Assembly (NCBI GenBank): GCA_919902995.1 | Contig: CAKKSD010000008.1 | Span: 10,922-74,921, forward strand | From: Thermodesulfovibrionia bacterium | GTDB lineage: Bacteria > Nitrospirota > Thermodesulfovibrionia > JACRGW01 | Direction: 5' to 3' | Length of the DNA: 64,000 bases | Shown here: positions 3,769 to 55,595 of the stretch, in pieces | Numbering within the stretch: position 1 is the first letter of the stretch | Layout of the letters: each line of letters starts with the position of its first letter | Notes under the pieces: generated by a model | What the model was told of the DNA's origin: nothing | The model's input: the letters and a program-made list of their open reading frames with translations, nothing else | The model's database searches: none | Translations under genes and position numbers: made by a program

Positions 3769-3850
3769 TTTGAAATGGATATTTCTGATTTACGAATGGA
3801 TACTGCCGGGATAACTGGTGATTAGCTGTATTGGACTAAAAAGCAAGGCC
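3751..3850. repeat. ~110-nt intergenic repeat family, copy 2
   Basis: High identity to 4681-4790 (ttacgaatggatactgccggg[a/c]taactggtgattagctgt...). Confidence 0.55.
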
Positions 3851-3993
3851 TAACCATAGCCCCTTGCCCTTGTCTCTGGAAGGATCTGCGAAGGGTTTTC
3901 CACATTGATATTGCCTTCTCATTAAAATAAAAGTATAATTGAATACGACTTTGTTTTAAGAAGGAAACAAAAAGTTTGCCATAGTATGTTTAA

Positions 3994-4302
3994 TACAAAG
4001 GGAGCATTCAACTGCCAATCATAATTGATGATATAATATGGCTGGATACAATAGTTGAAAAGATTGCATGGAAACATGGTGTGCTTCGGCACGAGGTAGA
4101 AGAAGTATTAACAGGCAATTGCAGGATATTCAAAAGAGAAAGCGGCAATATTGAAGGAGAAAATCTGTACAATGCCCTTGGCAGGGCTGAAAGCGGCAGG
4201 TATCTTTCAGTATTTTTTATCAGAAAGCTTAATAACAAGGCCCTAATTATAACTGCAAGAGATATGAACAAAAGGGAGAGGATAAGATATGAAAAAAAGT
4301 AG
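3994..4302 (+). CDS. brnT: BrnT-family ribonuclease toxin (DUF497); start codon unclear
   Basis: Open frame from 3994 encodes ...IAWKHGVLRHEVEEVLTGNCRIFKRESGNIEGENLYNALGRAESGRYLSVFFIRKLNNKALIITARDMNKRERIRYEKK, matching the BrnT core (KHGV...ITARxxxxxERxxYE). There is no in-frame ATG upstream of the conserved N-terminus. The track uses GTG at 4081. Confidence 0.5.
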   Translation, partial: YKGSIQLPIIIDDIIWLDTIVEKIAWKHGVLRHEVEEVLTGNCRIFKRESGNIEGENLYNALGRAESGRYLSVFFIRKLNNKALIITARDMNKRERIRYEKK

Positions 4303-4528
4303 GCGCAGAGAGATGACAATAACAGAGGCGAGCGACTATTTTGACGAGCACGATATTTTTGAGTTTAAAGATGTAAAAGAGGTCGCAGACATTAAATTCA
4401 GGCTGCAGAAAAAGAAATATGTGGGGCTTGATATGGAGCTTTTTAAGAAAATCAGAAGCAAGGCGAAAAAGCTCCATAAGAGCGAAGATATTCTTATTAA
4501 AGAATGGCTGATGGAGAAGGTAGGATAA
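4289..4528 (+). CDS. brnA: BrnA-family antitoxin
   Basis: 79 aa, overlaps the brnT 3' end. MTITEASDYFDEHDIFEF... is typical of BrnA (ribbon-helix-helix-like). Confidence 0.5.
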   Translation: MKKSRRREMTITEASDYFDEHDIFEFKDVKEVADIKFRLQKKKYVGLDMELFKKIRSKAKKLHKSEDILIKEWLMEKVG

Positions 4529-4680
4529 AAAACCTTATTTCCCCTGGAGCTAACCTTATCATTGGTGTAGGCTGGCCCCGCTGCTTTCCAATCCTGTTCC
4601 AATCTTTGTTAAGTCCTATAAAAAGAACACATGGATCCCTTCAATATATGAAATCAGGACAAAGGGAAGGGAATTAAAAA

Positions 4681-4790
4681 CTGCATTATGTCGGTTTGAA
4701 AATGGAGGGTTTAGATTTACGAATGGATACTGCCGGGCTAACTGGTGATTAGCTGTCTTAGACTAAAAAGCAAGACTTGACACTCCCAGC
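4681..4790. repeat. ~110-nt intergenic repeat family, copy 3 (carries only a half operator GCATTATGTCGG)
   Basis: Sequence identity with 3751-3850. Lies between brnA and the 3' end of the 68-aa gene. Confidence 0.5.
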
Positions 4791-4812
4791 TCTCGGTACT
4801 AATAATTATTGT

Positions 4813-5019
4813 CTAATTCAAAATGTATTTATTAAATTCTTCTATTGAATAATTGCCGCATTTATTGCTTCTCGCTTTAAAACAAGTTATTTCTCCTTTA
4901 TCAAAGAAGAATATATCATCGAAATCTGATTCCAAATTTTTATTTGGTTTTTTTAATGAGGATAGACTTTTATTATCACCATCAAAATCGCCTGCATTTA
5001 AGATTAATATTCTTTTCAT
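4813..5019 (-). CDS. small hypothetical protein (68 aa)
   Basis: The ORF is preceded by the same conserved promoter/operator region as gene 1613..2128 (copy D), which supports it being a real gene. Confidence 0.35.
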   Translation of the reverse strand: MKRILILNAGDFDGDNKSLSSLKKPNKNLESDFDDIFFFDKGEITCFKARSNKCGNYSIEEFNKYILN

Positions 5020-5185
5020 TTCAACCTCCTCTTTTATTGTTGTAAACAGCAGAGCCTAATAGCGAAAAGCATCAGGTCTTGAATTGTGAATCAAGCTGCC
5101 TCCTTTTTCAAATGCTAAGATCTGACGCCTCTTTTCTATTCCCTCCCTCTTTTAAAATTTATAACCCATATTTATCATATCTGCC

Positions 5186-9623: not shown

Positions 9624-10604
9624 TCAGTGTCCCTTTAATGCATCACCGAGTTCCCTTTTAACCTGTTTCCTGAGCCATTGGGGCTTAATTACTTCAACAT
9701 CTGGAATCCATGAATAGATCCATCTCTTGATTTCATCCACACCGGCAACAGTGAATGAGAGTTCCACATCCCCTGAAGGAAGGATATTCCTTTTTTCTGA
9801 GGGATGCCACTTTTCTCTCCTTGTGATATACTCGGCTACCTTCTTGGAAAACCTCAGGGTGACATCAACTGCATCATCCTCGTATATCCCCCAGCTCTGA
9901 GAGAGATGATCTTCAATATCAAATTCGCCACGAAAATAATGCCACCTCTCTTTTATGTCTTTAATCCTGTCAATATCAAAATGCCTTAACCTGTTCCTTA
10001 AATGACAGTACCCTATCAGAGTCCATGTCCCCTGATAGAATACCAGTCCGTAAGGGTCTACTTCCCTCTTTGTGACCTCTTTGCTATGGAGGGCTTTATA
10101 GATAATTTCGATCGAGCGTTTCTCTTTAATACAGTCTGAGATAATATTAAAATAGTTATTTAATCTCTCGGTCATGATAGCGTCAGGGATCTTTACGACA
10201 ATAGGAACCCTTGAGGGGAATTTGGTTATATTCGTCATATTAGTTATTAACCTCTTGAAATCTTCCTCAAAGGGCTTACCGAGATGTGAGACCGCCTCAC
10301 CCATTGTGAGGAGCAGCAGAAGTTCTCTATCAGAGAGGGCTGTTTTCTTTATGCGGTCAGTATTCACAAATCTATACCCCTTTCTCTCCTTGTCAAACTC
10401 TATAGTATCTATCATATTTATTATCTCAAGATACCTGTAAACAGTCCTTTCCTTTACTTCGAATTCCTCAGAAAGATATCCTACTGATGGGTATTTGTTC
10501 TGTGCAATCAGGGTGTAGGCTTTAAGGATATTGATAACCTTCTCTGATATGCCAGCAGGTTTGGATTTCTTATGTTTAAGGTTTTTAAAGGGAGGCTTTT
10601 TCAT
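9624..10604 (-). CDS. WYL-domain transcriptional regulator (BrxR/CapW-like, HTH + WYL)
   Basis: 326 aa. N-terminal wHTH (YLSEEFEVKERTVYRYLEII), central WYL-type segment (DPYGLVFYQGTWTLIGYCHLRNRLRHFDIDRI) and a C-terminal domain. Operator copy F lies upstream. Confidence 0.65.
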   Translation of the reverse strand: MKKPPFKNLKHKKSKPAGISEKVINILKAYTLIAQNKYPSVGYLSEEFEVKERTVYRYLEIINMIDTIEFDKERKGYRFVNTDRIKKTALSDRELLLLLTMGEAVSHLGKPFEEDFKRLITNMTNITKFPSRVPIVVKIPDAIMTERLNNYFNIISDCIKEKRSIEIIYKALHSKEVTKREVDPYGLVFYQGTWTLIGYCHLRNRLRHFDIDRIKDIKERWHYFRGEFDIEDHLSQSWGIYEDDAVDVTLRFSKKVAEYITRREKWHPSEKRNILPSGDVELSFTVAGVDEIKRWIYSWIPDVEVIKPQWLRKQVKRELGDALKGH

Positions 10605-10703
10605 GTTTTATCTTATCTGATTATTACCCTGTATTCCACTCCGAATAATTACCTTATTGACATAATGAAAAGGGCTTTAATATTTTAATTATAGCATATT
10701 TAA

Positions 10704-10721
10704 CTGACAGCACTATGACAG
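10704..10721. promoter_or_regulatory. operator-like inverted repeat CTGACAGCACTATGACAG (copy F) upstream of the WYL regulator gene
   Basis: Palindromic arms CTGACAG/CTGTCAG, about 85 nt upstream of the regulator start. Consistent with an autoregulatory site. Confidence 0.5.
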
Positions 10722-10793
10722 TTAAAATCCCCGTGCTTATTTTATAGGGAAAACGATTGCAATTAAACCTCTGAACCTATTATAATTATAACA

Positions 10794-11366
10794 ATGAAGC
10801 TTGTGTCGATCACAGGGGCACACAGCGGTGTGGGGAAGACCTCTCTCGCTGCTCTTATTTTAAGAGAAATCAAGGGCTTCTCCGCCATAAAGGTTACAAG
10901 GACAGAACTCTTTACCTCTATAACTATGGATGAAGAAATCATCTCTGAAAAAGGGAAAGATTCCTGTATCCTTAAAGAAAGCGGTGCCGATAAGGTTATA
11001 TGGGTAAAAGCAACCTATGATGATCTTAAAGAATGCCTTACACAGGCCCTATCAATGATAGGGAATACAGGTGGTGTGATAATTGAAGGTAACAGTCCTC
11101 TGGACTTTATAGATCCAGACCTTGTGATATTTATAATAAAAGATAATCTGACAGAGCTAAAACCGAGCGGAAGAAAGGCACTCGAAAGGGCAGATCTCGT
11201 AGTAATAAATACACAATTGGATGACCTCGAAATATTGAAGAAGGAAATCAAAGGTATAAATCCTTTAGTAGATGTATTTTTGAGTGATCTGTCAAAAGGT
11301 GAGATAGAGAAAGGATTTTTCGATATGGTAAAGAAAAAAATGGTGATGGAGCTTTCCTGTGGATAA
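10794..11366 (+). CDS. mobB: molybdopterin-guanine dinucleotide biosynthesis adapter MobB-like P-loop NTPase
   Basis: Walker A GAHSGVGKTSL. GKDSCILKESGA and IIEGNSPLD align with the MobB motifs GKDSYELRKAGA and LVEGFKHE. Confidence 0.5.
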   Translation: MKLVSITGAHSGVGKTSLAALILREIKGFSAIKVTRTELFTSITMDEEIISEKGKDSCILKESGADKVIWVKATYDDLKECLTQALSMIGNTGGVIIEGNSPLDFIDPDLVIFIIKDNLTELKPSGRKALERADLVVINTQLDDLEILKKEIKGINPLVDVFLSDLSKGEIEKGFFDMVKKKMVMELSCG

Positions 11367-11529
11367 GGCACTGATTGAGGCGATAAGGGTCGCCTCACCT
11401 GACAATCAGATTTCCTGTACAAAGGCAAGAGAGCTATCGGAGAGATTTGGTATTCCCCTGTCAGAGATAGGAAGATTGGCTAACGAACTCAAGATTAAGA
11501 TCGTTGCCTGTGAACTTGGGTGCTTCTGA
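11359..11529 (+). CDS. small ORF (56 aa, GTG start) bridging mobB and ccsA
   Basis: VDKALIEAIRVASPDNQISCTKARELSERFGIPLSEIGRLANELKIKIVACELGCF. Overlaps both neighbours and is not in the track (<60 aa). Confidence 0.2.
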   Translation: MDKALIEAIRVASPDNQISCTKARELSERFGIPLSEIGRLANELKIKIVACELGCF

Positions 11530-12344
11530 TGGATATCACCTTTTACTGGATAACCCTAAGTTTATATTTTATTTCAACATCCCTTTCTATAGTCTACATT
11601 TTCAGACGGCAAGGAATACTTTTCAAGGGTTCTCTCGCCTTTACAGCATTCGGTTTTTTTACACATACCCTAAGTATTCTAATAAGATTCTATGAGTCTT
11701 CCCATCTCCCAATAACGAACTTCTCTGAAGCAACATCTTTCTTCAGCTGGTGTATCGTACTGCTCTTCTTCTTTCTCGAATATAGATACAGGATAGGCCT
11801 TCTGGGTTCCTTTATACTCCCCTTTGTGGTCGTACTTCTTCTCTCTTCTTCCGCCCTTCCCTCCGAGATAAAACCCCTGAACCCTCTACTACGGAGTTAC
11901 TGGCTTGGAATACATACAGTTTTTGTCTTTCTCGGTAATGCAGCCTTTGCACTTGCCTCAGGTGTCGGGATTATGTATCTGATACAGGAAAAATATGTGA
12001 AGTCCAGACACCCCGGTGGTCTCTTCGAAAGGCTACCGAGCCTGCAGATCCTCGATGAGGTAAATTACAGACTTATAACCTTAGGATTTCCATTCCTGAC
12101 CCTCGCAATAATCTCGGGTGCATTATGGGCAGAGAAGACCTGGGGAAGTTACTGGAGGTGGGACCCGAAAGAAGTCTGGTCACTAATCACATGGTTTTTA
12201 TACGCCCTTGTATTTCATGTAAGATTTGTCTCCGGTTGGAGGGGAAAGAAGGCGGCGATACTTTCTATTATCGGTTTTGCCTCTGTTCTTTTCACATTCT
12301 TAGGGATCAGGTTCCTTATTAAAGGCATCCATATATTTGAATGA
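11520..12344 (+). CDS. ccsA: cytochrome c assembly protein CcsA-like (hemA-associated)
   Basis: Polytopic membrane protein with the WGSYWRWDPKEVWSL motif (WGxxWxWDxxE) typical of CcsA/ResC. Lies directly upstream of hemA. Confidence 0.7.
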   Translation: MLLMDITFYWITLSLYFISTSLSIVYIFRRQGILFKGSLAFTAFGFFTHTLSILIRFYESSHLPITNFSEATSFFSWCIVLLFFFLEYRYRIGLLGSFILPFVVVLLLSSSALPSEIKPLNPLLRSYWLGIHTVFVFLGNAAFALASGVGIMYLIQEKYVKSRHPGGLFERLPSLQILDEVNYRLITLGFPFLTLAIISGALWAEKTWGSYWRWDPKEVWSLITWFLYALVFHVRFVSGWRGKKAAILSIIGFASVLFTFLGIRFLIKGIHIFE

Positions 12345-23043: not shown

Positions 23044-23409
23044 TCAATCGATAGGAAGACGCCTCCGGCGAATCCGAGTTTTCTCAATGACAACAATGGA
23101 ATTTGGCAACTCCTCTTCTGAAATCGTTTCGAGCGTTCGTTTTAAACGTTCTACAGATTCTTGTTCGCTATAATTTCCACCTCGAAAGAGTATTAACCCT
23201 GGACCTTCGGACTGCAACAAAGCCAGCAGTCGGGGATAATCTAAATCAGCCGTGATTACTACCCGCTTCTCATTTCGAGCATGCTCTAAGATTGTTGTAT
23301 CAGCGGCTCGATTTAATCCCGCATCCGTGGCATGAACAGCGTCATGACCTTGCCCCACAAGCCAGACAGCCAAATCTGGTGACAAAGGCATGTCGATGAG
23401 AAACTTCAT
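23044..23409 (-). CDS. DUF5615-family PIN-like toxin
   Basis: MKFLIDMPLSPDLAVWLVGQGHDAVHA...ADLDY. GC-rich relative to surroundings. Overlaps the DUF433 gene. Confidence 0.5.
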   Translation of the reverse strand: MKFLIDMPLSPDLAVWLVGQGHDAVHATDAGLNRAADTTILEHARNEKRVVITADLDYPRLLALLQSEGPGLILFRGGNYSEQESVERLKRTLETISEEELPNSIVVIEKTRIRRRRLPID

Positions 23410-23645
23410 TTTGCAAGTTCTACCGTCTCTTCTTCTGCAAGATAAGCCGCATATTGCAGGGCTTCATCAATATCCTCTGGTTCAAGGTAAGGATAAGCCT
23501 TGAGAATAGTTTCCTTTGTCTCTCCGGAGGCAAGAAGTCCCAGCAATCGGGAGACCGGAAGTCGTAGTCCGCGGATACAAGGCTTGCCTGTACAAACATT
23601 CGGGTTTACTGTAATACGTTCAAATTTCATTGTTTCCACCTCCAA
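23406..23645 (-). CDS. DUF433-family antitoxin
   Basis: ITVNPNVCTGKPCIRGLRLPVSRLLGLLASGETKETILKAYPYLEPEDI is the hallmark DUF433 sequence. Confidence 0.55.
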   Translation of the reverse strand: MEVETMKFERITVNPNVCTGKPCIRGLRLPVSRLLGLLASGETKETILKAYPYLEPEDIDEALQYAAYLAEEETVELAK

Positions 23646-49135: not shown

Positions 49136-49648
49136 ATGAGTAAACTTCCAGGGCAAAGGGTGGCTATCTTAATTGATGGGCAAAACATTTATCTGTCCGC
49201 AAAGGCAAGAGGTGCTAAACCAGATTATAACAAAATCATGAATGCAGTGAATGGCAGAGAAATTGTCAGGGCGATTATCTACAATATCCTGCTAGATGGG
49301 GTTGACCAGAGCAAGTTTGTCTACGCAATGGAGAGCATGGGTTATGAGGTCAGATCGAAACGGCCACGCACACTTCCAGACGGCTCTTTCAAAGCAGACT
49401 GGGATATGCAAATTGCCATTGATGCTATTGCCCTTGCTGATAAGGTCGATGTCATGGTTATCCTAACCGGGGATACAGACTTTGTACCACTCGTCCATGC
49501 CTTAAAGTCTAAAGGCGTTAAGGTCGAAGTAATGTCATTCCGCGAGACAACAGGGAAAGAGCTAATCGAAGCCGCTGATGTCTATATAGAAATAACTGAT
49601 GATATGTTGATACACGAAAACCGGCCATGTGCAAGTTCTTACAAATAG
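49136..49648 (+). CDS. NYN-domain (LabA-like) protein
   Basis: VAILIDGQNIY ... VMVILTGDTDFVPLV conserved Asp motifs of NYN/LabA ribonuclease-like proteins. SD aaaggagga. Confidence 0.65.
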   Translation: MSKLPGQRVAILIDGQNIYLSAKARGAKPDYNKIMNAVNGREIVRAIIYNILLDGVDQSKFVYAMESMGYEVRSKRPRTLPDGSFKADWDMQIAIDAIALADKVDVMVILTGDTDFVPLVHALKSKGVKVEVMSFRETTGKELIEAADVYIEITDDMLIHENRPCASSYK

Positions 49649-49657
49649 AATACCTGT

Positions 49658-49686
49658 AGAAAAAATGAAGTTGATTCATTTTTTTC
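49658..49686. terminator. AT-rich hairpin gaaaaaatgaa-gttgat-tcatttttttc downstream of the NYN gene
   Basis: 9-bp stem followed by a T run. Immediately abuts the first cassette repeat. Confidence 0.35.
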
Positions 49687-49740
49687 TCTTCTTTATCAAT
49701 GTCAACAGATCATTTAACTGGTGGTTGTCGATGAGTCGCA
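49686..49740. repeat. cassette-boundary repeat R1 (divergent copy)
   Basis: tcttctttatcaatgtcaacagatcatttaactggtggttgtcgatgagtcg, compared with the consensus TTCTCCTTTATCAATGTCAATAAATCATTCGGCTGGCGGTTGTCGATGACTCGTAGAGAAGTA. Confidence 0.55.
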
Positions 49741-49767
49741 TCTAAATAAAGTGTCTCAAAGGTTTTT

Positions 49768-50169
49768 TTACTTAAATATCTCTTCAAAATCTTTGGGCTT
49801 TATAATTTTTGTATTATGAAATGGATTTAAAGCAAGGAGATCTTCATCTCCTGTAACGAGATGATCAGCTTTTCCCTCCAATGCTACTTCAAGCAGAAAA
49901 TTATCCTTTTCATCCCTGCAGGCATTAACCTTCTGGCTTGGCGAAACTACTATTGCATAACCATCAAGAAGTGAAAATAGCTCCTTGATTCTCCTGGAAG
50001 TAAAAATATTCTTAAATTTTGGGCGGCTTGATACTTCACTAAGCTCTTTCAACATCTCATCTGATAAGACAACTTTTATCTCTTTTGAAAGTATCTTTTC
50101 ATCTATGCCCTGTAAAAGGCTTCCGAGCAAGTAACTGATCCATATATTGGTATCAATTACGACTTTCAT
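49768..50169 (-). CDS. PIN-domain toxin (VapC-like)
   Basis: MKVVIDTNIWISYL start with conserved Asp. 133 aa. Overlaps the antitoxin gene. Confidence 0.6.
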   Translation of the reverse strand: MKVVIDTNIWISYLLGSLLQGIDEKILSKEIKVVLSDEMLKELSEVSSRPKFKNIFTSRRIKELFSLLDGYAIVVSPSQKVNACRDEKDNFLLEVALEGKADHLVTGDEDLLALNPFHNTKIIKPKDFEEIFK

Positions 50170-50398
50170 ATCGTTCTTGTCTTACAGCCTCTACCTCTTT
50201 GGTGATCTCCTCTATTGTTATAGGATATTTTCTTGCAGACTCTCTAAACTCCTTTAAAAGACTTTTAAATCTCGTAGCAAAAAGTTCTTCTTCCAACATT
50301 GTCAATACTTTTATTTTCATTTCTACTGGCAAATTCTTTACAGTCTTTTTAATTTTATTTAAGTCTGCATTCGAAATTGTTTTTAACATTACCAACAC
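50153..50398 (-). CDS. putative antitoxin partner of the PIN toxin (81 aa)
   Basis: Small upstream overlapping ORF. An identical copy exists at 51592..51837. Confidence 0.45.
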   Translation of the reverse strand: MLVMLKTISNADLNKIKKTVKNLPVEMKIKVLTMLEEELFATRFKSLLKEFRESARKYPITIEEITKEVEAVRQERYESRN

Positions 50399-50554
50399 CT
50401 CCTTAGTCCTCTTGTATTGTTTTTTATATTGGGATTTCCGTATCTATAATATGGGTCATAACTTATTCTTGAAAAGAGTATTCATATTTTTTGATTTCTT
50501 CTAAAGTTTCCTATATATATTCTATGTGTTCTTACCCATTTATACAATATTTAT

Positions 50555-50603
50555 TTTTCTTTTATAAGTGTCAATAAATCATTCGGCTGGCGGTTGTCGA
50601 TGA
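50555..50603. repeat. cassette-boundary repeat R2
   Basis: ttttcttttataagtgtcaataaatcattcggctggcggttgtcgatga. Confidence 0.6.
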
Positions 50604-50646
50604 TTAGTATAGCAGATGAGCGTGCAGGTACACTTTTGTAAAACCT

Positions 50647-50994
50647 TTATAAAGGCAAGAATTCTACTCTATTAGCCAAATCTTCAGGTTCTCCGGATTG
50701 TGCAATTATTTCTAAGTCCTTGATGCAGGCTCCAATTGAAATGTTTAAAGGAGATGTATAAATTACTCCCGAAAATGGAATTGATAACCTTTGCCTTTTT
50801 GCAGCCTCTACCAATAAATCATCATCAAAAGTAAAAAGCACACGATTTAATACAGTCGCACGCTCTAACAATTCAGAATCGGAAAGTTTATCAGCATTGT
50901 CTTCTTGCGCTGTAAGAAGATCAATTCCTCGTAACCGGAGTCCATTTGTAACAGCCTTTGGTATATGGGCATCCATATAAAGCTTAATAGCCAC
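50647..50994 (-). CDS. DUF5615-family PIN-like toxin
   Basis: MAIKLYMDAHIPKAVTNGLRLRGIDLL. Paralogous to 23044..23409. Confidence 0.5.
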   Translation of the reverse strand: MAIKLYMDAHIPKAVTNGLRLRGIDLLTAQEDNADKLSDSELLERATVLNRVLFTFDDDLLVEAAKRQRLSIPFSGVIYTSPLNISIGACIKDLEIIAQSGEPEDLANRVEFLPL

Positions 50995-51311
50995 TACAAT
51001 AACCCAGAGGCCTTTAATCTTTCTTTCAAGGGAGATTTTTCAGGGGCTTTATATTGCATAATACCCTTCAGGCGTTGCTCAATATCTTTATTAAGTTTCT
51101 CTTCATTGTCATAATAATAGGCCAGCGCCGAATGGATCTGCCCCAAGGTCAAATAAGGGTGCTGTAGATGTAATTCCTCAGGACTCCACCCATACGCTAC
51201 CTTTTCGGCCACAAGTTCAACCACCTTCATGGTAGTGCCTGCAATAAAAGGAATCCCTTTCTCGTCAATAGTAATATGCTCATATTTAGTTTCTACTGAA
51301 TGCATATGCAC
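50994..51311 (-). CDS. DUF433-family antitoxin
   Basis: ITIDEKGIPFIAGTTMKVVELVAEKVAYGWSPEELHLQHPYLTLGQIHSALAYYYDNEE. Paralogous to 23406..23645. Confidence 0.5.
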   Translation of the reverse strand: MHMHSVETKYEHITIDEKGIPFIAGTTMKVVELVAEKVAYGWSPEELHLQHPYLTLGQIHSALAYYYDNEEKLNKDIEQRLKGIMQYKAPEKSPLKERLKASGLL

Positions 51312-51382
51312 CTCCCTATTATTGCTTAATTATACCATAGATAGTGAAATAGCTCTTTATTATTTTTAATGCGATGAAAATT

Positions 51383-51468
51383 TCTTCTTTTATCAATGTC
51401 GCCAATAAATCATTCGGCTGGCGGATGTCGATGACTCATTTACGACCCGTAGGATAGAGAAGTAGCAC
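51383..51468. repeat. cassette-boundary repeat R3 (long form with a 20-nt insert)
   Basis: ttcttcttttatcaatgtcgccaataaatcattcggctggcggatgtcgatgactcatttacgacccgtaggatagagaagtagcac. Confidence 0.6.
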
Positions 51469-51480
51469 TTTTCTTTTCAA

Positions 51481-51530
51481 TCAATGCCTTTAAGTTGTTA
51501 TGAGCATCGGGTTGGTGGTTCTAATTAAAG
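51481..51530. repeat. degenerate cassette-boundary repeat R3b
   Basis: caatgcctttaagttgttatgagcatcgggttggtggttctaattaaagtg aligns with R1 caatgtcaacagatcatttaactggtggttgtcgatgagtcgcatctaaataaagtg. Confidence 0.4.
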
Positions 51531-51540
51531 TGTCTTAAAG

Positions 51541-51606
51541 GTTTTTTACTTAAATATCTCTTCAAAATCTTTGGGCCTTATAATTTTGGTATCAATTACG
51601 ACTTTC
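51541..51606 (-). pseudogene. vapC (PIN) remnant with internal deletion
   Basis: Only the 3' end (ttacttaaatatctcttcaaaatctttggg.cttataatttt) and the start-codon region (gtatcaattacgactttcat) of the 49768..50169 PIN gene remain, fused together. Confidence 0.55.
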
Positions 51607-51837
51607 ATATCGTTCTTGTCTTACAGCCTCTACCTCTTTGGTGATCTCCTCTATTGTTATAGGATATTTTCTTGCAGACTCTCTAAACTCCTTTAAAAGA
51701 CTTTTAAATCTCGTAGCAAAAAGTTCTTCTTCCAACATTGTCAATACTTTTATTTTCATTTCTACTGGCAAATTCTTTACAGTCTTTTTAATTTTATTTA
51801 AGTCTGCATTCGAAATTGTTTTTAACATTACCAACAC
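51592..51837 (-). CDS. putative antitoxin, exact duplicate of 50153..50398, now orphaned
   Basis: Identical 81-aa translation in the ORF track. The upstream leader is also duplicated. Confidence 0.45.
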   Translation of the reverse strand: MLVMLKTISNADLNKIKKTVKNLPVEMKIKVLTMLEEELFATRFKSLLKEFRESARKYPITIEEITKEVEAVRQERYESRN

Positions 51838-52004
51838 CTCCTTAGTCCTCTTGTATTGTTTTTTATATTGGGATTTCCGTTCTGTAGCTTTATCAATACC
51901 TCTTTCATTAGAATCTACCTCCTTCTTCTGTAAGAATATTTCTTAACAATTTTAGGATTCCTATACATATTCTATGTGTTCTTACCCATTTATACAGTAT
52001 TTAT

Positions 52005-52070
52005 TTTTCTTTTATAAGTGTCAATAATTCATTCGGCTGGCAGTTGTCGATGACTCGTAGAGAAGTATAT
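52005..52070. repeat. cassette-boundary repeat R4
   Basis: ttttcttttataagtgtcaataattcattcggctggcagttgtcgatgactcgtagagaagtatatgag. Confidence 0.6.
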
Positions 52071-52145
52071 GAGTAGTCTCTCAAGACTCTTCCTTTTGAA
52101 ATTTTCGTTTTTAAATCGTTGCTGACCTATTTGAGATACAACCAG

Positions 52146-52355
52146 TTAATGGGCCAGTGTCTTGGTATGAATGATTTTTAGACCCAGTGCTTTAACTGTA
52201 TCCTCAGTAGCCTTGCGAGTTTTTTCAATAAGTTCTCTTGGAGAGAGATTTTTTGTTTCGTTGTAGTCTTCTTCTCGGACCTTGTGAATCCATTCCAAAG
52301 ATTTATATCTCCATTTCTTCATATTCAACCACCTCCTCTGGTGATATAATCTCAA
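52146..52355 (-). CDS. small basic protein (69 aa), probable partner of the upstream PIN protein
   Basis: Overlaps the PIN gene's 3' end. No family recognised. Confidence 0.3.
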   Translation of the reverse strand: MRLYHQRRWLNMKKWRYKSLEWIHKVREEDYNETKNLSPRELIEKTRKATEDTVKALGLKIIHTKTLAH

Positions 52356-52806
52356 TAGGCTTATAGCCCATCCTTAAATTGATACTATTAATCACTCTCC
52401 GCACGGTTATATTCACCATATGCCTGTAATTCCAGGAGACAATGAAATCAACTTCATGGTATACGCCGATTGCAATATGTCTGGCATCATTGCGATACTT
52501 AGCAGGAATAACCTCATCATTTACATAGACGTCTGATAACTCAATACATTCCTCGGTCTCTTCAAGTATCTTTAATCCCGCTTCAGTAATCGCACTCTTT
52601 AATTTTTCCTGTATTTCATGGGGAGCCTTCAAAATCTCCTCTAAGGTAAGAAAAGAAATAAATCCTTCATAAAGTCCATCTTTGATTAATCTGATAAGGC
52701 TCTCTGCTTTTTTTATTCTTTCAGCATCCGCTATATCAAAAAGCCCACCAAGAACTGATGTATCTATATACAGACTTGCCTTTTTCATCCATCCTTCTTT
52801 TCTCAT
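52303..52806 (-). CDS. PIN-domain protein (VapC-like)
   Basis: ASLYIDTSVLGG...YRNDARHIAIGVYHEVDFIVSWN shows PIN acidic residues. Confidence 0.5.
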   Translation of the reverse strand: MRKEGWMKKASLYIDTSVLGGLFDIADAERIKKAESLIRLIKDGLYEGFISFLTLEEILKAPHEIQEKLKSAITEAGLKILEETEECIELSDVYVNDEVIPAKYRNDARHIAIGVYHEVDFIVSWNYRHMVNITVRRVINSINLRMGYKPIEIISPEEVVEYEEMEI

Positions 52807-52949
52807 CTCTTCTTATCTCTACGACATGAGATAAGAGGGTAAAGTATTTTTGAATTAGTATACCCCAAAATAAGATAAGGTAAAAGCAAAAAAATCAGAA
52901 TAATAATATCGAATATGAGAAATAAAGGAGTTTGACATGCTCAGGACTT

Positions 52950-53013
52950 TTTCCCCTCTATCAATGTCAATAAATCATTTGGCTGGCGGTTGTCGATGAC
53001 TCGTAGAGAAGTA
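52950..53013. repeat. cassette-boundary repeat R5
   Basis: ttcccctctatcaatgtcaataaatcatttggctggcggttgtcgatgactcgtagagaagta. Confidence 0.6.
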
Positions 53014-53071
53014 AATAAGCAGTTTTCAAGATCTTTCCTGATGCTTCAATCCACCAGTGCATAGATATCAA

Positions 53072-53302
53072 TTAGTTTCTTCTATACGCTTGATCGTGAG
53101 GACCTAAATCAATAAACTTTATAGTATCGTCTGAACATTTATTGCAATCACTGCAGAGGACTATCTCACTATCGCCTTTTTTGCGGCATACCCTGCAGTA
53201 TAAGTAAATGATTAGAAAATTCTTTTGTATCGGGCAACTATAGTATCCCCTTAAATTTCCCTTCAATGGCTCACCCAGGGCAATAGGGTTTTCTATAATC
53301 AT
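53072..53302 (-). CDS. RelE/ParE-like toxin with C-terminal zinc-ribbon-like Cys motif
   Basis: LKGNLRGYYSCPIQKNFLIIYLY matches the RelE core (L.G.L.G.Y..RI...YRIIY), followed by CRVC...CSDCNKC. Confidence 0.35.
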   Translation of the reverse strand: MIIENPIALGEPLKGNLRGYYSCPIQKNFLIIYLYCRVCRKKGDSEIVLCSDCNKCSDDTIKFIDLGPHDQAYRRN

Positions 53303-53384
53303 ATCTACCTTCTTCTTGATGAACTTTTTTATTGAGCTGTATTTTTTAGTGAATCTTTAAAGGCATCGCTAAAGAGAACCTCCA

Positions 53385-53645
53385 TCAAAAGACCTCTTTA
53401 TACCTGAACCATTTCACCTTACCAGATCTTATTCTCGAAATAGTTTGAAGCAGGCTTTCCCTGAAATCTGGATCTGAAAGGATTACCTCGGTTGGGTTAC
53501 TTTCTATTGTACGTTTTAGGTTAAGAAGAAACTGCGTGATGATCTCTGAAACTGAAGTTCTCTGTTGCTCTGCATAAGTTTTGGCATAGTCTATCAGGTC
53601 TTTGTCCAATGTAATGTTTATTTTACCCTTCTGCATCAAAATCAC
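53385..53645 (-). CDS. putative antitoxin (86 aa) upstream of the RelE-like gene
   Basis: Position and size only. Confidence 0.3.
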   Translation of the reverse strand: MILMQKGKINITLDKDLIDYAKTYAEQQRTSVSEIITQFLLNLKRTIESNPTEVILSDPDFRESLLQTISRIRSGKVKWFRYKEVF

Positions 53646-53841
53646 CTCCTTATGCTTATAATATACGCCTGTTATACATCTTTGTCAATATCTCTCGAGC
53701 ATCCTCAGCACCCAAATCTTTGGCGTTAACCCTGGGGTTTACAACTCTCTTGGATGCCCACTATATTCTTGCCAACTCAGGTTATCAAATTTAATCAGAC
53801 ATTTCGGGAGCTTTCAAAAATAGGAAGTATACGAAATTCAT

Positions 53842-53925
53842 TTCTCCTTTATCAATGTCAATAAATCATTCGGCTGGCAGTTGTCGATGACTCGTCTGCG
53901 ACCTGTAGGGGAGAGAAGTAGAGGA
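53842..53925. repeat. cassette-boundary repeat R6 (long form)
   Basis: tttctcctttatcaatgtcaataaatcattcggctggcagttgtcgatgactcgtctgcgacctgtaggggagagaagtagagg. Confidence 0.6.
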
Positions 53926-53939
53926 ATGTTCTGAAAATT

Positions 53940-55595
53940 CTACACCTCAATTATCAGAGGCAGGATCATTGGTTTTCTGTCCATCTTCTTGAGTATATAT
54001 TTTCTGAGGGTACTCTTTACACCTGCCTGAACAAGGGGCCATTCGGACTTTATCTCTTTACCCATAGACTCGAGGGCCGTTATTACGACTTCCTTAACCT
54101 CTGTAAGGAGTTCCTGGGAGGCATCCTCAAAGACAAATCCCCTTGAGATTATATCGGGTCCGGTAACGACCTTTCCAGTTAGTTTTTCGATTCCAATGAT
54201 AACGATCACTACACCGTCATGGGCGAGTCTCAGTCTGTCCCTGAGGACGACATCTCCAACATCCCCTATACCCTTTCCATCTATAAATGCCCTTCCTGCG
54301 GCTACCCTTCCGGCCCTCCAGGCCCCATCCTTACCGAACTCCACAACATCTCCGTCCTCGAGGATAAATATATTCTCAGGCTGAACCCCTGTCTTTTCTG
54401 CAAGCCTTGAATGATAGAAGAGATGCCTGTATTCACCGTGGATGGGGATAAAATACTTAGGCCTGACTATACTGAGCATGAGCTTCAGTTCTTCTTTGGA
54501 TGCATGTCCTGAAACATGGATCTCCGAGACCTTTTCGTATATAACATCTGCACCCCTTTTTAAAAGGTGGTTTATTACCCTCGCTATTGCCCGTTCATTG
54601 CCGGGAATCATCTTGGCAGAGAGGACTACCGTATCACCTTTCTTGATCCTGATATGTTTATGCTCATCCATAGCTATTCTTGAAAGGACAGAAAGGGGTT
54701 CCCCCTGGCTTCCTGTCGTTATAAACACGGTCTCATTTTCAGAAAGTCTCTTCATCTCATCCATCCTGAGCCATGTCCCTTTGGGTATCTTGAGGTAGCC
54801 GAGCTCTAAGGCTATCTGGGCATTAGAGATCATGCTTTTACCATTAAGGATTACCTTCCTTCTGAACATGGCGGCCACATCAATGATCTGCTGTATCCTG
54901 TGTATATTTGATGAGAATGTGGCGACAATAATTCTTCCCTCAGCCTTTGAGAAGATATCTTCTAAGGCCCTTCGCACCTCCTTCTCTGAAAAGGTATACC
55001 CTCCTTTTTCCGAGTTGGTACTGTCGGAAAGAAAAAGAAGCGTCCCCTTATCCCCGTACTCAGAAAATTTATGGAAATCCATCAGCTCCCCATCGACAGG
55101 TGTTGGGTCGAGTTTAAAATCCCCGGTGTGGACGATCCTCCCTACCGGTGTGGTTATTCCGAGGCCGACGCCATCTACAATACTATGGGTGACCCGCATG
55201 AATTCTACAGTGAAATCCCCGAGATGGATTATATCCCTCGGCCTGACAGGGTTGAGTTCGATACCCTCGAGACGATGCTCCTTTAATTTCTCCTTCACGA
55301 GACCGAGGGTAAGAAGGGTACCGTATACTGGGACACTTATCTGTCTGAGGAGGTACGGAAGGGCACCTGTATGGTCCTCATGTCCATGGGTAAGGATTAT
55401 TCCCCTTATCTTTTCCTTGTTATCGAGGAGGTAGGAGAAATCGGGGATAACCATATCTACCCCGAGCATATCCTCTTCAGGGAACATCTGGCCTGAATCA
55501 ATAACTATGATGTCATCCCCGTATTCCATCACCATCATGTTCAGGCCGATCTCACCAAGACCTCCTAAGGGGATGATAGAAAGTGTGTCGTTCAT
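53940..55595 (-). CDS. rnj: ribonuclease J (metallo-beta-lactamase/beta-CASP)
   Basis: HGHEDHTGALPYL metallo-beta-lactamase motif, beta-CASP region, 551 aa. Confidence 0.85.
   Translation of the reverse strand: MNDTLSIIPLGGLGEIGLNMMVMEYGDDIIVIDSGQMFPEEDMLGVDMVIPDFSYLLDNKEKIRGIILTHGHEDHTGALPYLLRQISVPVYGTLLTLGLVKEKLKEHRLEGIELNPVRPRDIIHLGDFTVEFMRVTHSIVDGVGLGITTPVGRIVHTGDFKLDPTPVDGELMDFHKFSEYGDKGTLLFLSDSTNSEKGGYTFSEKEVRRALEDIFSKAEGRIIVATFSSNIHRIQQIIDVAAMFRRKVILNGKSMISNAQIALELGYLKIPKGTWLRMDEMKRLSENETVFITTGSQGEPLSVLSRIAMDEHKHIRIKKGDTVVLSAKMIPGNERAIARVINHLLKRGADVIYEKVSEIHVSGHASKEELKLMLSIVRPKYFIPIHGEYRHLFYHSRLAEKTGVQPENIFILEDGDVVEFGKDGAWRAGRVAAGRAFIDGKGIGDVGDVVLRDRLRLAHDGVVIVIIGIEKLTGKVVTGPDIISRGFVFEDASQELLTEVKEVVITALESMGKEIKSEWPLVQAGVKSTLRKYILKKMDRKPMILPLIIEV

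Follow-up and report, generated by a model that had tools for sequence, protein, structure and literature searches.

The window analysed here is a stretch of 64,000 nucleotides (nt) from a contig of a Thermodesulfovibrionia bacterium (CAKKSD010000008.1), numbered from its first letter. The source is an uncultivated Nitrospirota from groundwater, whose RNase J finds its best matches in metagenome-assembled genomes of Nitrospirae / Thermodesulfovibrionales. Between 49.7 and 53.9 kb the window holds an array of five toxin-antitoxin (TA) cassettes that begins directly downstream of the RNase J gene rnj (53940-55595, minus strand, Pfam) and reaches a gene with an NYN domain (49136-49648, plus strand, Pfam). 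The cassettes are 619-946 nt long, all are transcribed in the direction of rnj, and their families are unrelated (PIN_3/VapB15-like, DUF5615/DUF433, PIN-like, and RelE/DUF6364). The GC content of the array is 31-39%, as against 41-48% in the flanking genes. We have numbered the cassettes c1 to c5 from the NYN gene towards rnj, and the repeats at their boundaries r1 to r6 in the same direction. Comparison of the sequences of c1 and c3 supports their being copies of one VapBC-type cassette, which is complete in c1 and has lost most of its toxin gene in c3. The original prediction had this as a recent duplication; instead, c1 and c3 are an old paralogous pair with an old deletion and a fixed orphan antitoxin.

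Intact and truncated copies of a VapBC-type cassette

The toxin gene of c1 (49768-50169, minus strand) encodes an intact PIN-domain protein of 133 amino acids (aa), with matches to Pfam PIN_3 (8.8e-21) and to NCBIfam TIGR00305 (111.9 bits against a cut-off of 29.15). Aligned with 11 homologues, it retains all of the near-invariant residues; the conserved acidic residues are D6, E38/E42, D86/D89, and D108/D110. From its sequence, the protein looks catalytically intact. The antitoxin gene of c1 (50153-50389, minus strand) encodes 78 aa in the form that gene callers take, and its ATG (at 50389, or 51828 in c3) stands 8 nt after AGGAGG. Its 3' end overlaps the start of the toxin gene by 17 nt. With type II TA modules of the VapBC type, c1 shares a PIN toxin with conserved acidic residues and a small upstream antitoxin that overlaps the toxin start. 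The c1 antitoxin differs from them in scoring 55 bits against the NCBIfam VapB15-like model, under the cut-off of 80, and in lacking a Pfam match.

In c3 the PIN gene is without 339 nt, which correspond in frame to codons 8-120 of the 133. The deletion junction, ATACCAA/AATTATAA, falls between imperfect ATAC(C/A)AA repeats. What is left of the toxin is a stub of 20 codons, MKVVIDTKIIRPKDFEEIFK, in which the first 7 and the last 13 codons are fused (51546-51608, minus strand; 63 nt with the stop), as seen in the translation, the junction, and the alignment. A fusion of first and last codons had been proposed at 51541-51606 with a length of 66 nt; the fusion is real and in frame, and the limits and the length are corrected here. 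The stub retains just one catalytic residue. The antitoxin gene of c3 (51592-51828, minus strand; 78 aa) is identical to that of c1 at the nucleotide level, and the toxin deletion leaves its open reading frame (ORF), its ribosome binding site (RBS), and 52 nt of the proximal leader untouched. The loss of the toxin with retention of the antitoxin is thereby confirmed: c3 holds an orphan antitoxin, an intact ORF from a once complete module whose neighbouring toxin has been cut to 20 codons.

Alignment of the two copies also upheld the near identity of the duplicated segments. At their centre is a block in which 298 of 298 nt are identical (50144-50441 and 51583-51880, minus strand; repeat family listing and alignment), with not one further identical base on either side. 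Besides the whole antitoxin gene, this block takes in 52 nt of the 5' leader and the beginning of the toxin gene (7 codons). It is followed in the leader by a segment that is specific to each copy, 66 nt in c1 (50442-50507, minus strand) and 77 nt in c3 (51881-51957, minus strand), and these two segments are non-homologous and cannot be aligned. A replaced leader block had indeed been noticed, but its size had been put at roughly 90 nt. The distal leader and repeat are similar again (50508-50603 versus 51958-52053, with 4 mismatches in 96 nt), as are the toxin 3' end and tail (49741-49814, 74 nt, versus 51520-51592), where we counted 3 substitutions and 1 insertion or deletion in addition to the junction base.

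Homology between the copies had been said to end exactly at the boundary repeats. On the right, high identity ends at ...GTCGATGA (50603/52053), and a weaker similarity typical of the repeat family continues for about 40 nt. On the left, homology stops 6 nt from repeat r1 in c1, and in c3 it stops at a degenerate, truncated repeat that had gone unnoticed (r3b, about 51475-51519). The copies are not adjacent: c2 sits between them, and the orphan of c3 and the intact module of c1, with their identical antitoxin proteins, are 1.4 kb apart.

The copy-specific leader block of c3 supplies the start codon and a strong RBS (GAAGGAGG) for an upstream ORF of 26 codons, MKEVLIKLQNGNPNIKNNTRGLRRCW (51908 to 51828), whose stop overlaps the ATG of the orphan antitoxin. 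Just upstream of this ORF is a near-palindrome with 6-nt arms, TAAGAAATATTCTTA. Neither the ORF nor the near-palindrome occurs in c1, and all alleles of c3 carry the ORF. The orphan antitoxin gene is intact and probably still expressed, now behind a leader with a coupled upstream ORF.

Age of the pair and probable gene conversion

Contigs for comparison were obtained by exact-protein look-ups in Hainich groundwater data (ENA and Logan), in a set of SRR2238xxxx runs, and in JGI and NCBI records, and were mapped onto the window; they are cited here by numbers beginning with L. Nine of the retrieved contigs, from nine samples, cover the c3 position, and all nine have the deletion, at an identical junction, together with the 77-nt leader block of c3. 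Among them is an allele (L010) that is about 4.5% diverged over the stretch from c4 to c3. The orphan antitoxin is listed in 27 blocks of the index. The intact PIN protein, on the other hand, is on record only from Hainich well H51, in the source contig of the window, in L016, and as a 99% variant in L015. The locus thus does not offer the snapshot of toxin loss that had been suggested, and the intact c1 is a rare and distal member of the array, and probably a dispensable one.

Strains differ by 0.2-0.4% across the shared array, whereas the alignable flanks of the pair differ by about 5%. Because the flanks have diverged to this extent and the leaders contain a non-homologous block besides, the divergence of the two copies is older than that of the strains sampled. 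Cassette c1 is not a recent copy of c3, since an intact copy cannot arise from a deleted one, and a single unequal crossover is insufficient because c2 lies between the copies. A recent duplication of the whole cassette in place, by way of the boundary repeats and with deletion of the toxin in the new copy, could account for the 298 identical nt, for a distal leader with only 4 differences in 96 nt, and for the members of the repeat family that bound both copies. We nonetheless consider such an event unlikely. It is at odds with the deleted allele in every retrieved contig covering c3, including the diverged one, when the intact copy is found in one well; with the divergence of the flanks and leader blocks relative to that between strains; and with the position of c2 and the already decayed 3' repeat of c3.

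The 298-nt centre has no differences, as compared with 8-9 in the 142-170 nt of flank that can be aligned (Fisher p ~3e-5). An identical centre bounded by heterology on both sides is the pattern expected of gene conversion, and the identity is best explained by conversion confined between the two heterologies, as far as the sequences allow a judgement. Purifying selection combined with chance is a less likely alternative. We had also considered a special conservation of the antitoxin across strains and dropped the idea, as divergence in the array is just 0.2-0.4% and the look-up demands identical proteins.

Predicted neutralisation in trans

Because the two antitoxin proteins are identical, the orphan antitoxin of c3 should neutralise the c1 toxin in trans. 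With its toxin neutralised by the orphan, c1 would no longer be addictive and could be acquired or lost freely. The orphan antitoxin in itself is a known kind of thing: toxins commonly decay while their antitoxins are retained, and well-studied species have orphan antitoxins in abundance. Orphan antitoxins and the concept of anti-addiction have been described (PMC7192599, PMC7354431), and the chromosomal CcdA of Erwinia chrysanthemi and the orphan antitoxins of Klebsiella are, like that of c3, intact antitoxins left by toxin decay (PMC7192599, PMC7354431). As in anti-addiction systems, the cell or its gene pool also contains an intact homologue of the module, and neutralisation of the toxin of that homologue is predicted. 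The arrangement here differs from those systems in that orphan and intact module occur in one array and have identical antitoxins. It also differs in that no close copy was found on plasmids or phages: distant members of the PIN family (at most 41% identity) occur on about 600 plasmids, and in phages none was found.

In integrons, excision of TA cassettes has been seen only when they were duplicated (PMC13108822). The predicted dispensability of c1 agrees, by analogy, both with this finding and with the anti-addiction idea (PMC7354431, PMC7192599, PMC13108822). The intact paralogue survives only beside an identical orphan antitoxin, which is what anti-addiction models and the integron model of "cassette loss killing" predict.

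The boundary repeat

We built a profile from eight copies of the boundary repeat and searched the whole window with nhmmer. The search returned exactly six units of about 95-100 nt, each on the minus strand and each at the boundary of a cassette; the remaining 60 kb contained no further unit. The most diverged is r1 (49677-49767; E 4e-16, also found by motif search and alignment), at the distal end of the array beside the NYN gene, which has the core TCATCGAC-AACCACCA-GTTAAATGA. Repeat r2 (50543-50637; nhmmer and contig mapping) is the point at which the window and L207 diverge from L014, L205, and L206. Repeat r3 (51375-51475; E 1e-22, with alignment) is a long form with an extra segment, CCTACGGGTCGTAAAT; r4 (51994-52092; E 1e-22) and r5 (52942-53040; E 2e-23) follow, and r6 (53830-53930; E 5e-26), again a long form, lies directly downstream of the RNase J stop codon. 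The degenerate r3b (51475-51519, minus strand), a repeat truncated at its 5' end that follows the toxin stub of c3, was missed by the profile and was read from the alignments. The boundary motif ...GGTTGTCGATGA occurs in six copies within 49.7-53.9 kb and nowhere else as part of a repeat. With up to 3 mismatches allowed, a 25-mer core was found 5 times, and there are 6 occurrences of a 12-mer core, where 0.00 and 0.18 occurrences, respectively, were expected.

The conserved core reads TCATCGAC-N8-GCCGAATGA, followed by TTTATTGACATTGATAAAG. It forms a short dyad around an 8-nt spacer that varies between copies, with AACCGCCA, AACTGCCA, and AACCACCA among the variants. A role for this dyad on duplex DNA is a lead and not a result. 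The AACCACCA variant is common to r1 and r3b, and r3b appears to be the decayed original 3' repeat of c3. Because r1 and r3b share this variant, the 5' part of the repeat would move with the cassette upstream of it, and the bulk of a repeat likewise goes with that cassette. In L010 (about 376-449), r4 has lost 21 nt through an internal deletion, CTCTACGAGTCATCGA among them; as this is the left arm of the core dyad, L010 amounts to a natural site mutant. A second DUF433/DUF5615 pair in the window, at 23044-23645 on the minus strand and much closer to the Pfam models than c2, is solitary, outside the array, and without a boundary repeat. Since this pair has none, the repeat is a property of the array and not of TA genes in this genome.

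The repeat does not behave as a structured element. None of the six copies, on either strand, folds better than shuffled sequences (z -0.9 to +1.4), and alignment folding gave a hairpin of 8-10 pairs inside the core with no compensatory changes. An attC site folds into an imperfect hairpin of paired R and L boxes with extrahelical bases, and its inverse core sites stand 50-150 nt apart. What is conserved in the attC sites of integrons is a bulged hairpin with RYYYAAC/GTTRRRY cores, while the sequence varies (PMC9024848, PMC4889954). A regular-expression scan of both strands from 49600 to 54000 found no canonical RYYYAAC...GTTRRRY pair, and relaxed AAC...GTT pairs were inconsistent with the boundaries, with one of the three ending inside the core of r1. 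An attC site was accordingly rejected, as conserved hairpin and core motifs are lacking and it is the sequence that is conserved. A dif site was rejected as well: the repeats have 12-16 mismatches in 28 positions to three dif/pdif sequences, and the control mean is about 14. We likewise rejected a miniature inverted-repeat transposable element despite weakly complementary ends (CTTCTCT ... AGAGRRG), given six co-oriented copies that occur at boundaries only and are absent from the other 60 kb. The repeats had no Rfam match, and two scans of viral contigs returned only chance 19-20-mers and no match resembling a phage attachment (att) site.

The repeats could instead punctuate a read-through rnj transcript, as processing sites, insulators, or shared promoter parts, and would then owe their place at the boundaries to expression and not to mobility. 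The orientation of all cassettes with rnj and the count of intrinsic terminators in 4.4 kb (0 versus 2.4 expected) would suit this explanation, as would the TTGACA of the repeat, which together with AATAYT makes a promoter-like match of 10/12 upstream of c1 and c3. Such matches, however, are not enriched (15 versus 15.9 expected), the TTGACA could plausibly serve c1 and c3 only, and the best promoter-like sites of c4 and c5 lie outside the repeat core. The folding results show no conserved structure or covariation to go with an RNA element, and the strain-specific changes of content at the repeats, described below, would be left unexplained. We regard punctuation as very improbable.

Array configurations in related strains

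All contigs that reach it share the order rnj-c5-c4-c3, and rnj is the conserved proximal flank in every contig reaching that gene. Beyond c3 there are three configurations. Configuration A, with c2, c1, and the NYN gene, occurs in the window, L207, L015, and L016; the NYN gene (also seen in L208) is the distal flank only in this type. Configuration B (L014, L205, and L206) has c2 and r2 followed by csx3 and a further gene, both absent from the window. In configuration C (L006-L013), c3 is followed by a DUF2281 antitoxin with a MazF stub of 12 codons, which is joined to the 3' end of the CYTH gene, and then by the PAS/GAF gene.

Configurations A and B are identical through r2 up to ...GATTTATTGAC (TTGAC) and unrelated thereafter. 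Both occur in one assembly of well H51, which contains L206 (B) and L015 (A). Synteny with configuration C ends at 51404, inside r3. The r3 copies of C and of A and B are already about 10% different, and base differences accumulate from the tail of c3 onward. Because of this 10% difference, the event at r3 was not a clean exchange within the site. For the proposal that the repeats act as recombination sites, then, r2 marks a swap of content and lends moderate support to a junction role, whereas r3 offers no clean exchange.

A chimeric or expanded window contig, with no single genome that has both copies, would be one way to explain away the pair. In other assemblies, contigs do stop at a repeat or where the 298-nt block begins or ends (L001, L002, L015, and L207), the Hainich contig names give a coverage of 2-5, and two configurations coexist in the same well. 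We find this explanation scarcely credible, because L207, from a separate run (ERR3858122), links the tail of c3 via c2 and r2 to the leader and antitoxin start of c1 at 100% identity. In addition, L015 and L016 cover c1 to the NYN gene, L014 covers c4, c3, c2, and r2, and the distinct flanks of the two copies do not fit a single locus that was collapsed or expanded. Independent assemblies thus confirm both copies and their order.

Several other differences between the configurations were noted. The csx3 gene of configuration B encodes a 79-aa Csx3-family protein and is followed by a gene with an AF_1859_N domain (L014 2619-3078; L205 1102-1695; L206 1041-1169). In some strains of well H51, a cluster of CRISPR-associated genes may therefore adjoin the array; an identical Csx3 occurs only on contigs of at most 3 kb. 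Configuration C is without about 29 kb of the window (22374-49700), which contains genes for curli-like lipoproteins, radical SAM proteins, and a branched-chain amino acid ABC transporter. Its MazF stub-CYTH fusion lies at about 22418 of the window and has no repeat at the junction. The 29-kb difference has the appearance of a large deletion, or else of an insertion that the window strain acquired. In L007 (1-1061 versus window 54198-55258), the RNase J gene differs at 33 of 1061 positions (3%) and the adjacent array at about 0.3%, which points either to an exchange of the array between strains or to a recombinant rnj.

Comparison with known cassette systems

Five co-oriented cassettes with six repeats, a content swap at r2, and changes at or next to r3 are the marks of a cassette array. 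Both ends of the array are full repeats, and no integrase was found among the roughly 30 nearby ORFs tested, an absence that still allows a cluster of attC sites lacking an integrase (CALIN). Sedentary chromosomal integron arrays and CALINs, which often carry promoter-containing TA cassettes, have much in common with the array described here: small co-oriented cassettes, each ended by a repeat most of which belongs to the cassette's 3' end; repeats that are homogeneous within an array and lineage-specific, at which assemblies break; TA cassettes with their own promoters; no integrase nearby, in the case of CALINs; and the presence of one cassette at two non-adjacent positions. There are also differences. 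The repeat here is conserved in sequence and has neither hairpin nor attC cores, the proximal site is a full repeat and not a distinct attI, and every cassette is a TA pair in a nearly fixed order. By analogy, the array works like a cassette array, but it is not to be filed as an integron.

In dif/pdif modules, integrative mobilizable elements exploiting Xer (IMEX), and accretion of the type of cis-mobilizable elements (CIME), small modules that include TA pairs are bounded by short sites, served by a recombinase encoded elsewhere, and collected at one chromosomal site. The sites here differ from those of Xer modules and CIME in being direct repeats instead of inverted pairs, and in a length of about 100 nt compared with 28 nt for dif, which consists of two 11-nt arms and a 6-nt spacer. 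The repeat is no more similar to dif than are random 100-nt windows. No tRNA or tmRNA was found in the window, and there is no insertion target derived from one. A literature search found no paper on TA arrays bounded by repeats other than attC. The boundary repeat matches no known recombination site and is the unexplained part of the system. What is new beyond an ordinary orphan antitoxin is an array with a sequence-conserved, unstructured repeat of about 100 nt that fails both the attC and the dif tests.

Proposed history of the array

The history that we favour would have four steps. TA cassettes would have been inserted stepwise at one site downstream of rnj, the repeats being, or having been, duplex recombination sites for a recombinase encoded elsewhere. 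An old VapBC copy at the c3 position would then have lost its toxin, by deletion between short imperfect repeats, together with its 3' site, and would have become fixed. The intact paralogue would have persisted, or have been re-inserted at the distal end, in some strains. Finally, conversion between the two copies would have homogenised their centre. We hold this account, of an array shaped by recombination at repeat sites with an old pair, a fixed deletion, and a converted centre, to be probable, with moderate confidence; it is least certain where it takes the repeats for true recombination sites.

A number of points weigh against it. The exact-protein look-ups bias the sample toward identical antitoxins, and all of the data are short-read assemblies, with contig names in the Hainich set reporting the coverage given above. 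If only synonymous and untranslated sites are neutral, the probability of no change in the centre is 0.01-0.07, by a rough estimate of our own. Only one clean repeat-bounded swap was seen, that at r2; homologous or illegitimate recombination would account for the differences at r3 just as well as site-specific recombination. No contig departs from the order c5-c4-c3, and shuffling is therefore rare or extinct. No recombinase, including tyrosine recombinases detectable with Pfam, was present among about 30 ORFs of 79-908 aa in the regions of about 7-46 kb and 55-62 kb. A 25-nt repeat core had 0 matches among the GTDB species representatives, and at 68 rnj loci of related Nitrospirota and other organisms there was no repeat and no comparable array beside rnj. 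A 19-nt core, which is too short a pattern, had at least 120 single chance matches in JGI metagenomes, and in the matches listed the shared sequence is limited to 19-24 nt of the repeat. Neither these searches nor the other TA arrays showed the repeat in another lineage, and comparative support is consequently lacking.

Some of these points would be expected if no dedicated recombinase were involved and the repeats were simply a substrate for RecA-dependent or short-homology recombination and conversion. The repeats might then be att remnants of decayed integrative elements downstream of rnj, or a 3'-untranslated element that has spread, and strains would have come to differ in the array through ordinary deletions and homologous exchange. 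The differences of r3, which are spread through the repeat and not concentrated at one point, would fit this explanation, as would the illegitimate MazF stub-CYTH fusion with its repeat-free junction, the 21-nt deletion in r4 of L010, the fixed order of the proximal cassettes, and the failure to find a recombinase nearby. Left unexplained, however, is why five TA cassettes share one co-oriented element of about 100 nt that occurs nowhere else in 60 kb. Cassettes of 0.6-0.95 kb are also too small for decayed self-mobile elements, and no att-like viral match was found. Recombination without a dedicated enzyme is a possibility that deserves to be taken seriously, although we doubt it.

The favoured history could be taken further, and the repeats regarded as the sites of an undescribed cassette-capture system, integron-like in outcome, with sequence-specific duplex sites built on the dyad core instead of folded attC sites and a recombinase encoded elsewhere; the unrelated, lineage-specific elements in L209 and L224 (see below) would be further versions of this principle. 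We put this forward tentatively, as a speculation. If it is true, repeat-bounded TA arrays are a general and overlooked platform for gene cassettes. Should the repeat prove to be a genuine site of recombination, cassette arrays would occur outside integrons as well, and tools based on attC, such as IntegronFinder, would miss those of this kind.

Toxin erosion in the other cassettes

Cassette c2 (50647-51305, minus strand) consists of a DUF433 antitoxin (50994-51305) and a DUF5615 PIN-like toxin (50647-50994), identified with Pfam and present as gene calls in L014 and L205. Cassette c4 (52146-52806, minus strand) has a PIN-like gene of 167 aa (52303-52806), with a weak match to Pfam PIN_3 (0.0012), and a partner of 58 aa (52146-52322). 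A DUF6364 antitoxin (53385-53636) and a toxin of the RelE/StbE family, identified with Pfam, make up c5 (53072-53636, minus strand), the toxin being a pseudogene in the window.

The toxin gene of c5 is intact (104 aa) in L007, L012, and L013, and the L007 form scores 35.3 bits against TIGR02385 (cut-off 27.9). In L002, L006, and L008 it has a deletion of 258 nt (window 53022-53279). In the window and L003 it is frameshifted where an A7 tract at about 53341-53347 reads A6, with a stop at codon 19; this could be a homopolymer slip, or a sequencing error common to the Hainich assemblies. The PIN-like gene of c4 has a deletion of about 348 nt (window 52343-52689) in L002, L007, and L011 and is intact elsewhere. 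The deletions in c4 and c5 each have 3-6 nt of microhomology at the junction, and all four combinations of intact and deleted c4 and c5 occur among the contigs. Every toxin lesion spares the partner antitoxin. With c3, there are four independent lesions in three toxin genes, three of them microhomology deletions of 258-348 nt and one a homopolymer frameshift, and the antitoxins are untouched. The population data are thus an unusually clean natural series of toxin erosion within one array.

Related modules in other uncultivated bacteria

At E<=1e-10, 256 relatives of the c1 PIN toxin were found; identity is 78-100% among the 120 of them that were listed, most of which are encoded on short contigs. 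This family of PIN proteins and antitoxins is abundant in environmental genomes. At least 24 contigs encode one PIN protein of 89% identity, and its neighbour differs from contig to contig. In two of these, L209 (1-19146) and L224 (1-16529), 16-19 kb are occupied by co-oriented TA cassettes, and L225 and L226 are likewise arrays. The same cassettes occur in different orders between these contigs. The cassettes there (L209, L224-L226, and L210-L214) are separated by 9-nt units in tandem, for example CCAGATAAA and CCAAATAAA, with 4-12 units to a cluster, and a palindrome resembling TGACATCTGAAGATG follows the 9-nt clusters at several boundaries. The boundary repeat of the window was not found in these arrays. 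They share with it the same antitoxin-PIN module (82-89% identical), the co-orientation of cassettes, and the presence of a boundary element; they differ in that the element is unrelated, in their much greater length (at least 19 kb), and in being visibly shuffled. In L215 the antitoxin-PIN module stands alone, with housekeeping genes on both sides.

A lone 78-aa gene in L224 was considered as a parallel orphan antitoxin and rejected: it has no tblastn similarity to the antitoxin and reads as a cysteine-rich, zinc-ribbon-like protein. L224 contains a duplicated block of two cassettes (3841-5093 and 10301-11553) and an insertion sequence (DDE_Tnp_1), and L209 contains a group II intron reverse transcriptase. 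In L216 (1609-1746) and L217 (1598-1735), a PIN fragment of 46 aa, 78% identical, stands just upstream of an intact antitoxin-PIN module and represents another decayed paralogue beside a live copy, in a different lineage.

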